A stretch of 64,000 nucleotides of DNA from a virus, in IMG/VR virus record IMGVR_UViG_3300033128_000043, positions 15,639 to 79,638 of that record; one strand, written 5' to 3'. Positions 21,979 to 50,902 of the stretch are shown here, piece after piece. The position numbers and the translations under genes are program-made. Below the pieces are notes generated by a model, which saw only the letters and a list, made by a program, of their open reading frames with translations, was not told the origin of the DNA and did not search any database. Position 1 is the first letter of the stretch. Every line of letters starts with the position of its first letter.

Positions 21979-22006
21979 TGCAACACATGAAGAATCAAAG
22001 CTACTG
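21979..22006 (+). promoter_or_regulatory. Candidate phage promoter TGCAAC-N16-CTACTG
   Basis: Variant of a motif found six times at identical spacing. Confidence 0.4.
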
Positions 22007-40255: not shown

Positions 40256-41116
40256 TCAAGCAAGAGGGTGGAACTGCAAGAAATTCTTCTTTTTTGCTTC
40301 TTTAGTAATGGTAGCATAAATCCGTGTAGTATTGATGTTTTTATGCCCCAAGAGATCCTGAACAGTTGCTAAGTCACAGCCGTGATCAACTAAATGTTGA
40401 GCATAGGAATGTCTGAAAACATGAGGGCTGGCATCCTTTGGGTCAATTCCAATCTTTTCTGCAAGACGTTTTACTGCATAAAAAACACTTTCACGTGTTT
40501 GATGTTTATTTGGATTATTCTTGTTAGGGAACAGGTAACCCGAAGTGATATTATTCTTATCAATATATTCGCGTAGCAGTGCTATACACTCAGTATGCAA
40601 GGGATTAGCACGCTCTTTGTTTCCTTTACCAATTAAGGATACGTACCCATTATCTAAATCAATTTGATCAGTGGTGAGGGATACGACCTCAGTCACCCTA
40701 CCACCTAGACCATACAACATATGGAAGATAATGTGTGTTTTTAAACCCTCTTTTGCTGAGGCCTGAAGTAATTTATCTATAACTTCCTCTGGAAGAGATT
40801 TACGAAGACGCTGTTCCCTAGATTTAATTTGAACACCATCTACTGGATTGGGGCCTGAAATTTTATGTGAATAAATTAGGTAATTAAAATAGGTCTTTAG
40901 TGAACTAATGCGACGTATAACTGTTTTTCTGTTTTTACCTGCTGCCAGGCTATTAGCAACAAATTCTCTAATTAAATCTGCTGTTACATCCTCTACCGTA
41001 ATATCAGGAAAAGAATTAAAAAATATTTTAATATCTCTTAGATAAGCTGCAATTGTGTTTACTGAGAGATCCCTTTCAGTCTTCAAATAAAAGGAAAATT
41101 GTTTAGTGTAAGACAT
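40256..41116 (-). CDS. XerC/D-like tyrosine recombinase
   Basis: R (GGRVTE), K (GKGNKER), HxxR (HVFRH), LGH and Tyr (TTRIY) catalytic motifs; start at 41116 behind RBS GGAAGGGTG. Confidence 0.9.
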   Translation of the reverse strand: MSYTKQFSFYLKTERDLSVNTIAAYLRDIKIFFNSFPDITVEDVTADLIREFVANSLAAGKNRKTVIRRISSLKTYFNYLIYSHKISGPNPVDGVQIKSREQRLRKSLPEEVIDKLLQASAKEGLKTHIIFHMLYGLGGRVTEVVSLTTDQIDLDNGYVSLIGKGNKERANPLHTECIALLREYIDKNNITSGYLFPNKNNPNKHQTRESVFYAVKRLAEKIGIDPKDASPHVFRHSYAQHLVDHGCDLATVQDLLGHKNINTTRIYATITKEAKKKNFLQFHPLA

Positions 41117-41130
41117 AAAATACACCCTTC

Positions 41131-41171
41131 CATTTAACATAATTCGATTATATACAACATTATGTTAAATG
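41131..41171. repeat. 13-bp perfect inverted repeat made of two XerD-type dif arms
   Basis: CATTTAACATAAT-tcgattatatacaac-ATTATGTTAAATG; TTATGTTAAAT equals the XerD arm of E. coli dif. Confidence 0.75.
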
Positions 41172-47056: not shown

Positions 47057-47110
47057 GAAGCGACACCAAAAAATCGGGTGGAGGGAGGTTCATGCCACAT
47101 AAATAGGCAT

Positions 47111-47174
47111 AATTAAACCATTAAACGCGTAAATTAGTTACAGGTTTAATGGTTTAATCATTAAAGCATTTAGT
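47111..47174. repeat. 8-bp-periodic array containing a 15-bp perfect inverted repeat
   Basis: ATTAAACCATTAAAC (47112-47126) / GTTTAATGGTTTAAT (47144-47158). Confidence 0.7.
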
Positions 47175-47227: not shown

Positions 47228-47494
47228 ATGAAAAGAAAAGTTTCTGAGGTAAGTAGAAAAGAAAGATCAGATAAAAAAATTAGAGTAAATGCTGCCTTAC
47301 CTAAAGAAGTTCATGACAAATTGAAGAAGTTAGCCATTGCTTGTGATAAAGATAAGACTCCACTGGCGGCAGAAATATTAGAGATAGCATTAAATAATGA
47401 GAGCGTAGTTAATTGGTTCCAAACTAAGTACAACAAGGATGAGGCATATAGAATTATTGTCGTAAAATCAAATGGGAACGTGCACTATAGTTAA
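47228..47494 (+). CDS. Ribbon-helix-helix DNA-binding protein
   Basis: 'KKIRVNAALPKEVHDKLKKLA' beta-strand/helix CopG-like pattern. Confidence 0.65.
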   Translation: MKRKVSEVSRKERSDKKIRVNAALPKEVHDKLKKLAIACDKDKTPLAAEILEIALNNESVVNWFQTKYNKDEAYRIIVVKSNGNVHYS

Positions 47495-47616
47495 CACGTT
47501 CCCCAAGTCTTGCCTATCTTCTTCCAGACTTTTAGGCACCTGGAACAAAGACGACCATTCTCTTTATGTTTGGTAGCTGATACCCTCACCGTTTTATCGC
47601 AATGTTTACATTTCAT
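47491..47616 (-). CDS. Small Zn-finger protein (41 aa; not in ORF track)
   Basis: MKCKHCDKTVRVSATKHKENGRLCSRCLKVWKKIGKTWGTC; RBS GGAGG; two CxxC pairs. Confidence 0.6.
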   Translation of the reverse strand: MKCKHCDKTVRVSATKHKENGRLCSRCLKVWKKIGKTWGTC

Positions 47617-47688: not shown

Positions 47689-48087
47689 TTAGAAATCAAT
47701 ATCATAGTCTTCTTCGATACTGCCTCTTATTTCAATGTCAGAGAAGTCCTTAATGACTTCTTTTTTATTTACCGGTTCGTTTTCTGGTGCAGCATGACTG
47801 ATATCTACCTGACCTGACTTCAGTGCACTATGAATGTCTTTTGTGAGTTCTCGAAGTGAACTAAGTTCCATACGCATTTCATCTAGTTCCCTTCGAATCT
47901 CTGGGTCAACTAAGCCTTTCCGTGCCTGCATATCCCTTTCAATTAAGGGGAGCACGTATGAGATAAAAGTCTTTCCTTCCATTTCCGCCTCGACATGCTT
48001 GTATACCTCTTCAGATAGGGAGGAGGTGCGGAGATTAAATACGGCGTGCTTTCTTTTCTTGCTGCTGTTTACTTTTTCTCTAGCCAT
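47689..48087 (-). CDS. ParR/Alp7R-like partition adaptor
   Basis: 132 aa; basic N terminus, RHH-like 'VFNLR...SYVLPLIERD', coiled coil, acidic tail 'EEDYDIDF'; same operon as the actin-like gene. Confidence 0.6.
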   Translation of the reverse strand: MAREKVNSSKKRKHAVFNLRTSSLSEEVYKHVEAEMEGKTFISYVLPLIERDMQARKGLVDPEIRRELDEMRMELSSLRELTKDIHSALKSGQVDISHAAPENEPVNKKEVIKDFSDIEIRGSIEEDYDIDF

Positions 48088-48560
48088 TCATCTGGCCGCC
48101 TTTCCAATGCACCCGAAAGCATGGAGTTTCTAAGATATTCCTTAGTACCCTGCAGAGCCCTATCTGAGGTTGTGTTAAGTTCCAATTCTCGCACTAACAA
48201 GTCATCAGCCCAACCATGCATAAATCGAAAGGCTTTAAGTGCCCAATAACACTCAGCCCTTGAGGGAATTTCCCCTTTATCAATGTCCTCTAAGATATCA
48301 CTTAAGTTTCTAAGTTCCGCTGGATCGGATGGCCTTGGATTTGAACTCCAAGTCATAGAATGATCTAGAATGCCCCTCAAATTCTTAGGGTTGGCGGGCA
48401 AGATGAATCTTAAGATATTCTCATCAATTACATCTGTTTTGATGAAGCCATCAACATTCCGCTCTTTTTTATAGGCTAATGAAGACTTAACCTTCACCCA
48501 GCCGTATTCGTGTAATATTCTTAGATTATCTGCTACTTGGTTATATAACAGTTTAATCAC
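48069..48560 (-). CDS. Hypothetical protein within partition operon
   Basis: 163 aa, overlaps both neighbours. Confidence 0.55.
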   Translation of the reverse strand: MIKLLYNQVADNLRILHEYGWVKVKSSLAYKKERNVDGFIKTDVIDENILRFILPANPKNLRGILDHSMTWSSNPRPSDPAELRNLSDILEDIDKGEIPSRAECYWALKAFRFMHGWADDLLVRELELNTTSDRALQGTKEYLRNSMLSGALERRPDEWLEKK

Positions 48561-48756
48561 CCTCCCCTAGGTTACCTAATGTGTCCAGCTCACACAGGAC
48601 CCATTTCAAGGCAAAGTATCGTTCACTAAGTAAATCCATTTTATTAAAATAAGCAGGCTTGTCCAGTTCTCCAGAGGAGTGCTGTGTGATTAGAGTGTAA
48701 AATCCTTGCATAACATCCCGCAACGCAGAACGTACTTCTTTTTCTGATCGCGTCAT
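48553..48756 (-). CDS. Hypothetical protein within partition operon
   Basis: 67 aa, start overlaps the stop of the actin-like gene. Confidence 0.55.
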   Translation of the reverse strand: MTRSEKEVRSALRDVMQGFYTLITQHSSGELDKPAYFNKMDLLSERYFALKWVLCELDTLGNLGEGD

Positions 48757-49916
48757 TTTGAAGCGTTCAGTCTTTTCTGTTCAATGTCACGACTTATGAT
48801 TTCTAAGCCATCAATGTTTAGGGTTCTTGCATTTGGTGGAACGATGTGATTGGCAGAAGCCAAGTCTTTACCGAACATCTCAATTGCAACTTCTTCTATA
48901 TAAGGCTGCAGGATTTCAGCTACTCCTCCGATATAAAGGTACTTGTAGAATGTCCCTTTAGGAATTGGGAATGCCTCGATAGCTTGCGTTATTTTAATCT
49001 TTGCATAATCTTTCAGTGAAGTTTTTATAACATCAGTAAGGTCAGTCGCCTCACCTGTAACCCCATTTATTAACTCCATTTTTTCTTTTTTACTATAGCT
49101 GTATATGAATTTATCCAAACTTCTTAAGTCACTGAAGTGCTCAGCTAATTTTGATTTCCGTAGCTCTTCTAGATGCTGCAGGTAGGAATAATCTGTGAAC
49201 GGAATAAATGAGTCCTTACTTGTTGGAGACTTAAGACCAGGAGGGAGCAATACTGCGTCATCTGTCCCGCCACCCATATCAAAAATAACCGTGTAATGCT
49301 CATCATACTTTTTGGCTTCTTTTTTATCAGCCAAGTCCAGTCCCTTTTTGATACCCATTCGTGCGACTTCAGATTCAATTCTGCATAGAGCCTCTTCCAC
49401 TGTAATGGTGATTTCACTCTCCATACCTAGTGTCAAAATTTTGACTGTGTGAGTGCCCTTAAATCGCTGTGACATTAAATCTTGCATCTCACTAAACTTG
49501 TTCAACTTTTTAAGCAGCCATATAGGCAGCATTGTCTGGAAAAGTTCAATGTGTACTTCGTCAGTATCATCATCTTCTTCATTCAGCTTTTTAAAGAAAG
49601 CCGTTGCAGCTAAAAACATGACAAACGGGATAGGAGATGTCACTTTATTGTGTAATTTATTAATATGGCGATTTCCAAATATGTGGTTGTTGGCGATTTC
49701 TCCTACTAGATAATACTTTTCTTCACCATCAATCTCAGTTGAGATCAACAGTCTATCGATCAAGTCCTTTGGATCATCGATTGAGTTAGTAAAAACTTCC
49801 TCCGATTCTGCCTTAGAGAGCTCTACAACGTTTGTTGGGATTTCAAAAAACACCCCATTAATGTAGTTCATGTACATGGAATTACCCATGTCTGAGTTAA
49901 ATCTTGTTATTTTCAC
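48753..49916 (-). CDS. alp7A: Actin-like plasmid segregation ATPase, Alp7A family
   Basis: Actin motifs 'DMGNSM', 'DMGGGTDD', 'YIGGVA'; 'FQTMLPIWLLKKL.KFSEMQ' and 'CRIESEVAR' recalled from B. subtilis plasmid Alp7A. Confidence 0.85.
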   Translation of the reverse strand: MKITRFNSDMGNSMYMNYINGVFFEIPTNVVELSKAESEEVFTNSIDDPKDLIDRLLISTEIDGEEKYYLVGEIANNHIFGNRHINKLHNKVTSPIPFVMFLAATAFFKKLNEEDDDTDEVHIELFQTMLPIWLLKKLNKFSEMQDLMSQRFKGTHTVKILTLGMESEITITVEEALCRIESEVARMGIKKGLDLADKKEAKKYDEHYTVIFDMGGGTDDAVLLPPGLKSPTSKDSFIPFTDYSYLQHLEELRKSKLAEHFSDLRSLDKFIYSYSKKEKMELINGVTGEATDLTDVIKTSLKDYAKIKITQAIEAFPIPKGTFYKYLYIGGVAEILQPYIEEVAIEMFGKDLASANHIVPPNARTLNIDGLEIISRDIEQKRLNASK

Positions 49917-49949
49917 CTAAATAGCCCCTTTCTGTATTCAACATAACTA

Positions 49950-49978
49950 AATTTATCATTTTGTGCGCACAATGTCAA
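49950..49978 (-). promoter_or_regulatory. SigA-type promoter of the partition operon with palindromic operator in the spacer
   Basis: TTGACA-N17-TAAATT with TG extension; spacer contains the palindrome TTGTGCGCACAA. Confidence 0.65.
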
Positions 49979-50064
49979 TATCATGTATACACTTTTAACC
50001 CTTAATAATAAAAGATTATGTGCGGTTTTTGTCTATTTTTGTATTCATTAAATTTCATGTATAC

Positions 50065-50097
50065 AAAAACCCCATCAAGATAGCTGACGGGGTTTTT
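50065..50097 (-). terminator. Terminator at end of methyltransferase gene
   Basis: AAAAACCCCATCA-agatagc-TGACGGGGTTTTT. Confidence 0.7.
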
Positions 50098-50902
50098 CAT
50101 TAATGGAATTTAGTCTAACATTTGCAATGTCTACATATTCTTTAGCAATTTCAAAGCCTATCCAGTCTCTGTTATTCAAGCTGGCCATTTTAGCAGTAGT
50201 TCCAGAGCCCATAAAAGGGTCTAAAATAACGTCTTTTTCTTTTGACCATGACAAGATATGGTCGTTTGCTAATTTCTCAGGGAAAATCGCTGGGTGCTTG
50301 TACGCAATGGAATCTAAGGTGCTTTTTTGATGTCCGTTAGGTATACGCCAAATGTTAAATCTGACACCATACTCCTTAAGTAGATTCTGTTTTCTATGTT
50401 CGACTTGCTCCCCATCAACAGTACGAAACCTACCCTTGATATGTTTTTTGCCATTAAAGCATTTATTCTTTCTATCAGACAACAGGTTGACTGTCTTTGG
50501 TTTACCTTTAGAGAAAACGAACATATACTCAAATATTTGATAGTAACGAGTCTTCTCTGGGAAGCTGATACTGTCTTTTTCATAAAGCATAGTGTCATGT
50601 AAGTTAAACCCTTGTTCCATAAAGAATAAGGCTTGTTTAAATGATGTTCCTGTTTCAGATCCTTTGTGTACTTTATCCCCAACTACCCATACGACTACTC
50701 CACCTTCTTTTGTAACACGGAAGAGTTCTTTTGCCACTTGTTCAAAATCAAAAGAATGTCCGTGATAGTTTCGAAGATCGTCATATGGCGGTGATGTCAC
50801 AGTCAAATCAACACAGTTGTCGGGCAATTCTGCAAGGCCTATCAAGCAATCAGTGTTGTGTATTTTATTCAGTTCAAGGGTACCTATTGATTTATTAACC
50901 AT
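50075..50902 (-). CDS. DNA amino-methyltransferase (N4-C/N6-A, beta class)
   Basis: Motif IV 'VTSPPY' precedes 'HPAIFP' and motif I 'DPFMGSGTT'. Confidence 0.9.
   Translation of the reverse strand: MVNKSIGTLELNKIHNTDCLIGLAELPDNCVDLTVTSPPYDDLRNYHGHSFDFEQVAKELFRVTKEGGVVVWVVGDKVHKGSETGTSFKQALFFMEQGFNLHDTMLYEKDSISFPEKTRYYQIFEYMFVFSKGKPKTVNLLSDRKNKCFNGKKHIKGRFRTVDGEQVEHRKQNLLKEYGVRFNIWRIPNGHQKSTLDSIAYKHPAIFPEKLANDHILSWSKEKDVILDPFMGSGTTAKMASLNNRDWIGFEIAKEYVDIANVRLNSINEKPRQLS

Follow-up and report, generated by a model that had tools for sequence, protein, structure and literature searches.

The 64,000-nucleotide stretch analysed here (the window) encodes an actin-type partition cassette that is a variant of the alp7ARC system of Bacillus subtilis plasmid pLS20, with two additional genes lying between motor and adaptor. 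The window is part of one record of 118,627 bp, and the element as a whole is well supported as a Jenstvirus-like tailed phage of the B. pumilus group with a prophage that is a circular plasmid of about two copies per chromosome. The best reading of the cassette, and one that we hold to be probable, is that Alp7 acts as a lysogenic segregation spindle alongside a ParA system, with an acquired plasmid module and with the two orphan genes as passengers.

A complete tailed-virion and lysis set was found (major head, tape measure, endolysin, terminase and portal genes), in agreement with the original prediction that the genome encodes a full virion. Its description of the element as a phage-plasmid is likewise supported, by circular relatives of about two copies and by plasmid-type replication and partition genes (ParA, RHH and a Rep-like protein, plus alp7). 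Bacillus phage EZ-2018a (CP027117.1) is 94% identical to the record over 96% of the length, circularly permuted. This phage was recovered from total DNA of B. pumilus 145 by PacBio sequencing, with Canu and Circlator; its contig was distinct from that of the complete chromosome and had a coverage of 487x, compared with 266x for the chromosome (PMC5920177). The coverage corresponds to about 1.8 copies per chromosome, and spontaneous induction could be a partial cause of this roughly twofold excess of free circles. In GM3FR the relative is a contig of 116,324 bp whose ends overlap by 127 bp, which marks it as a closed circle, and a more distant Jenst-like element has been deposited as the circular plasmid pPlas1 (NZ_CP061173.1). 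Coverage and circularity, which had been proposed as a check, therefore point to a plasmid in EZ-2018a and GM3FR, whereas the record itself is classed as linear, with ends that lie 195 bp apart within a flagellin gene by comparison with EZ-2018a.

This break bears on an alternative in which the prophage usually resides in the chromosome, inserted either at a dif-like site by the Xer-like recombinase or through flagellin recombination, with the cassette at work solely on excised circles. Both record ends fall inside the flagellin gene, the 195 bp missing between them are 96% identical to the flagellin copies of the GM3FR host, and the genome has both a tyrosine recombinase and a dif-like palindrome. 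However, the same identity of the 195-bp stretch to host flagellins explains where the record ends, namely at a collapsed repeat. In EZ-2018a and GM3FR both the flagellin gene and the palindrome are uninterrupted and lie within the contig, the GM3FR circle is closed at a different place, and the chromosome of strain 145 is complete with the phage assembled separately. Normal integration is very improbable. The idea that the flagellin sequence at the contig end is host chromosome was also rejected, since the whole gene is internal in two relatives.

The flagellin parts occupy record positions 1-334 and 117963-118627, and the gene is whole in CP027117.1 and GM3FR. The flagellin that the phage encodes is complete (301 aa in EZ-2018a) and variable in its central part, with 60% identity in the C-terminal part compared. 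The locus has its own sigD-type promoter and a csrA-like ORF (a weak match, E 0.006). Flagellar conversion or superinfection exclusion are possible roles, and phage flagellins with TldR have been published for enterobacteria.

Whole-genome searches identified one tyrosine recombinase, the XerC/D-like gene at 40256-41140 (minus strand), which is conserved in Jenst and pPlas1; they returned neither a serine recombinase nor a resolvase. The original observation that the window holds no obvious integrase besides the Xer-like gene thus extends to the whole genome, and this sole recombinase is probably a dimer resolvase. A perfect dif-like palindrome, ATTTAACATAA-7-TTATGTTAAAT, at genome positions 115252-115280 is conserved in EZ-2018a and GM3FR, intact and internal in all three genomes; it is a likely resolution site, which fits dimer resolution. 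The Xer-like gene has the palindrome arms again at its 5' end, spaced by 17 bp (window 41132-41170), where they may form an autoregulatory site.

The motor gene (48753-49916, minus strand, 387 aa) encodes an intact Alp7A-family actin-like ATPase, as predicted. It matches Pfam Alp7A_like_C (E 2e-52) and the Alp7A structure PDB 5EC0 (E 8e-139), and the close match to Alp7A named in the original prediction was found as 58.5% identity to the pLS20 protein. A motif check showed that the residues of the phosphate-1, connect-1, phosphate-2 and adenosine motifs are all retained, with D9, G11, N12, E181, D213, G215-217 and G330-331 in place; E181 corresponds to Alp7A E180, the hydrolysis residue (10.1101/098954). 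The dN/dS of the motor is 0.019, a value which, like the others given for the cassette, is a rough pairwise estimate against seven relatives that are not independent, and it points to strong purifying selection. A pseudogene or decayed cassette was ruled out, with zero stops in the cassette genes of the window and dN/dS far under 1; one stop was flagged in the GM3FR zinc-finger alignment.

Motors are 99% identical within the phage group, and the nearest ones beyond it are 60% identical. The tree places the phage motor with three plasmid-like sequences (96/86 support), adjoining the pLS20 family and away from B83, on a stem of 0.78 changes per site. The phage protein differs at 10 of 98 highly conserved columns, all of them non-catalytic, and together with the long stem these deviations could reflect a changed role of phage Alp7A. 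No further Alp7A locus was found in a scan of IMG/VR.

The predicted SigA promoter was recovered upstream of the motor as the sequence match TTGACA-17-TAAATT with a TG extension (extended -10) at 49950-49978 (minus strand), 34 bp from the start codon and with boxes on either side. The region shows no excess of promoter-like matches (8 against 10.2 expected), so the support for this promoter comes from its position and conservation: it has the joint best score, it is the only one of the matches with a TG extension, and its -35 is invariant among relatives. The boxes, four copies of TGWATACA, make up a putative alp7C-like centromere/operator at 49933-50065 (minus strand). This cis site extends past the bounds of the cassette as first delimited (47689-49978), and its four boxes had been missed. 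They start at 50058, 50040, 49984 and 49933, which is -149, -131, -75 and -24 from the start codon, and nowhere else in the 118-kb genome are such boxes as densely clustered (4 where 0.16 would be expected; 0 of 5000 shuffles). Across 8 relative loci all four stay unchanged although the spacers differ, the sister plasmid-like loci agree in box sequence as well as in gene order, and three of the four boxes match the offsets of pLS20 boxes at -132, -76 and -25. Although nine repeats have been described in pLS20 (10.1101/098954) and the phage has only four perfect boxes, the cluster is a good candidate for the alp7C centromere and operator.

Between the cassette and the upstream methyltransferase gene lies a terminator-like hairpin (50065-50097, minus strand; -18.8 kcal/mol, z -5.6), which is kept in relatives without the methyltransferase and would insulate the operon from upstream transcription. 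The methyltransferase itself (N6/N4 DNA type, window 50075-50902), directly upstream of this terminator, is present in some relatives and missing from three. The motif TGCAAC-N17-YACT, a candidate phage-sigma promoter, occurs at window positions 21979, 27808, 45306 and 46965 (4 against 0.26 expected) and has no occurrence between 49917 and 50075. A SigA-type promoter behind a terminator, with no phage-sigma motif upstream, would fit lysogenic expression.

The ParR-like adaptor of the original prediction turned out to be a true Alp7R homolog. This Alp7R-family adaptor/repressor (47689-48087, minus strand, 132 aa; dN/dS 0.19) is 33% identical to pLS20 Alp7R (E 2e-15), with an acidic C-terminal tip common to both, and 41% identical to the sister-clade adaptors of the nearest plasmid-like loci. 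Downstream lies a small CxxC-CxxC zinc-finger ORF (47491-47616, minus strand, about 41 aa), 61% identical to the ORF downstream of pLS20 alp7R and with a similar ORF in a sister locus. It is followed by a convergent Arc/RHH-like gene (47228-47494, plus strand, 88 aa), which is 61% identical to a pLS20 neighbour gene and 49% to the sister loci, almost invariant (dN/dS 0.006) and present in 61 plasmid records. Both genes belong to one plasmid module with alp7. The convergent pair (window 47228-47616) travels with alp7 modules on many Bacillus plasmids, and no description of its function was found. The RHH gene is separated from a putative phage promoter by a strong hairpin (window 47109-47161, z -6.7).

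Motor and adaptor are held apart by two coupled ORFs, one of 67 aa (48553-48756, minus strand) that overlaps the actin stop codon (ATGA) and one of 163 aa (48069-48560, minus strand) that overlaps both of its neighbours. These conserved ORFs, orf67 and orf163, fill the whole of the 665-bp gap. In pLS20, other pLS20-family plasmids, B83 and the sister loci, the adaptor immediately follows the motor without the two orphans, a bicistronic layout that is absent from the phage cassette. The simple motor-adaptor cassette first described is therefore correct in that both genes are real, but not in their adjacency. A single frameshifted gene was rejected as the origin of the two ORFs, as both lengths and the overlaps are conserved across all relatives.

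Both orphans are restricted to the phage's own group (83-97% identity), and their dN/dS values (0.11 for orf67, 0.13 for orf163) resemble those of the ordinary phage genes around them. Neither could be named from Pfam, PHROGs, NCBIfam, PADLOC or the Atlas, with zero defence-system matches, and for orf67 the Atlas offered only weak resemblances to viral hypothetical proteins. A search of the full library found two short proteins matching residues 83-160 of orf163, the C-terminal half of which resembles small stand-alone hypothetical proteins. One of the two is encoded in a primase-linked cluster without partition genes and the other matches phrog_21314, a PHROG annotated as unknown. Fold models of orf163 were of low confidence twice (pLDDT 41.5 and 42.6). 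The simplest and most likely reading is that orf67 and orf163 are passenger phage genes.

One or both of the orphans might instead be dedicated regulators of the filament or adaptor in a four-component system, for example as a switch from lysogeny to lysis. Such a role would suit their tight translational coupling on both sides, their presence in every phage-group locus seen, the purifying selection on them and the coincidence of their appearance with the long stem of the motor. However, all other inspected Alp7 loci are bicistronic and do without them (PMC8557374), the C-terminal half of orf163 stands alone in an unrelated primase-linked context, and the orphans evolve at dN/dS values like those of ordinary neighbouring phage genes, so we consider this role unlikely. 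We are similarly doubtful of an extended form of the idea, in which the orphans co-evolved with the fast-diverged Alp7A and the phage switches it between segregation and lytic positioning while ParA secures inheritance.

A second partition locus was found outside the window, at genome positions 105803-108436, comprising a ParA-Ib without the N-terminal HTH, a 73-aa RHH-like adaptor and a Rep-like protein whose gene has internal 33-36-bp tandem repeats. The ParA is 99% conserved in EZ-2018a and GM3FR, and the locus, about 40 kb from the Alp7 cassette, is probably the replicon of the prophage together with its second partition system. Because of this ParA-Ib/RHH/Rep locus, the Alp7 cassette is not the sole, and possibly not the main, maintenance system. 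The proposal that the cassette keeps the prophage as a plasmid accordingly holds for the plasmid state and the Alp7 identity, with Alp7 beside a second partition system. The ParA system beside rep could be sufficient alone; on SCP1, just one of two functional partition systems matters in the laboratory (PMC13245405). More than one partition system is present in some 19% of the plasmids that have any, and the combination of type I RHH with type II is among the most frequent (PMC13245405).

The presence of a second system also leaves room for a division of labour in which ParA/RHH segregates the prophage and Alp7 mainly positions phage DNA during induction or lytic replication, in the manner of CGP3. 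The cassette lies among lytic DNA-metabolism genes in the same direction, its motor sits on a long branch, and AlpC/AlpA of CGP3 provide a precedent (PMC4446434). Against this, and leaving the original suggestion that the filament might position replicating phage DNA without support, the cassette lies behind a terminator that would insulate it, the promoter is of SigA type with operator-like boxes and no putative phage-sigma motif at 49917-50075, the architecture is that of a plasmid module, and Jenst and pPlas1 lack the cassette. We regard such a division as rather unlikely, and favour segregation of the lysogenic plasmid by Alp7 alongside ParA.

The Alp7 system is an accessory, plasmid-derived module. 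Its accessory nature, and the independence of the phage-plasmid call from the cassette, follow from Jenst and pPlas1, which use an unrelated ParM beside a rep-like gene. The family occurs in 230 plasmid records compared with three phage records, and from this distribution, together with the absence of alp7 from Jenst and pPlas1, we infer transfer from plasmid to phage. Jenst (NC_028805.1) has ParM, rep and Xer-like genes and the Paenibacillus plasmid pPlas1 is a Jenst-like phage; Jenstvirus as a whole group may be phage-plasmids.

Under the favoured reading of a lysogenic spindle, an ancestor of the phage would have gained the whole alp7 module (centromere, motor, adaptor, zinc finger and convergent RHH gene) from a pool of plasmids to which the pLS20 family belongs. 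The SigA-type promoter would drive the operon in the lysogen, and by homology to pLS20 Alp7R dimers would bind the TGWATACA boxes and repress it. Clustered Alp7R would then, again by analogy with the plasmid system, nucleate and stabilise dynamically unstable Alp7A filaments, which would push sister phage-plasmid circles apart. Alp7 would act beside the ParA-Ib/RHH system adjoining rep, as in dual-par plasmids, and the two inserted genes would use the lysogenic promoter while translational coupling to the adaptor is kept.

These findings overturn nothing known. The cassette is a further well-supported case in which Bacillus plasmids and phage-plasmids have exchanged a module, and Jenst-like phages are seen to swap partition systems, with ParM in Jenst and pPlas1 and ParA plus Alp7 here. 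Since pLS20 Alp7A is well characterised biochemically and structurally, the natural variant offers a cheap test of extra-gene control of a type II spindle; it also bears on why a phage-plasmid keeps two segregation systems.

Compared with alp7ARC of B. subtilis pLS20 (PMC8557374; 10.1101/098954; 5EC0), the phage cassette has a homologous motor (58.5% identical) and adaptor (33%) and the same catalytic residues. Around the promoter of each, 8-bp TG-N4-CA boxes stand at corresponding offsets, and both have the downstream zinc-finger and convergent RHH genes. However, the pLS20 boxes are mostly TGATTTCA/TGAAATCA and those of the phage TGWATACA, four of them perfect, two orphan genes separate motor and adaptor, and the cassette is placed away from the replication region, on a phage replicon with a second (ParA) system. 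As motor, adaptor and cis site agree with the plasmid system and the bicistronic layout does not, the cassette is a variant and not a canonical alp7ARC.

The Brevibacillus phage Jenst and Paenibacillus peoriae pPlas1 share syntenic virion and replication genes with the record (terminase 75% and 71%), an Xer-like recombinase and partition genes beside a rep-like gene, but there the gene beside rep is a ParM unrelated to Alp7A and the alp7 module is absent. Actin-type ParM-like and RHH adaptor pairs have been described in the Bacillus plasmid prophages vB_BtS_B83, IEBH, phiS58 and Bp8p-C (PMC8026635, PMC6669507), which are likewise tailed phages maintained as circular plasmids, with an Xer-like recombinase in B83 and phiS58. 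The B83 motor itself belongs to the Alp7A family (41% identity to the phage motor). The pair is bicistronic in these prophages, whereas the present case is a 118-kb Jenst-like virus whose motor groups with pLS20-like plasmid proteins.

AlpC/AlpA of the Corynebacterium glutamicum prophage CGP3 (PMC4446434) are also a phage-encoded actin and an adaptor that binds its own promoter region, but CGP3 is integrated and its system acts on induction, whereas the evidence here points to a plasmid state. Dual partition plasmids (pB171 with type Ib and type II, R27, pINV; PMC13245405) similarly combine a type I RHH-ParB and a type II system on one replicon, a pairing common enough to account for 971 PLSDB accessions (PMC13245405); here some 40 kb separate the two loci, which lie on a phage-plasmid. 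Both dual partition systems and the partition of Bacillus phage-plasmids by actins have thus been published before, and the only unusual detail of the cassette is the pair of genes inserted between motor and adaptor.
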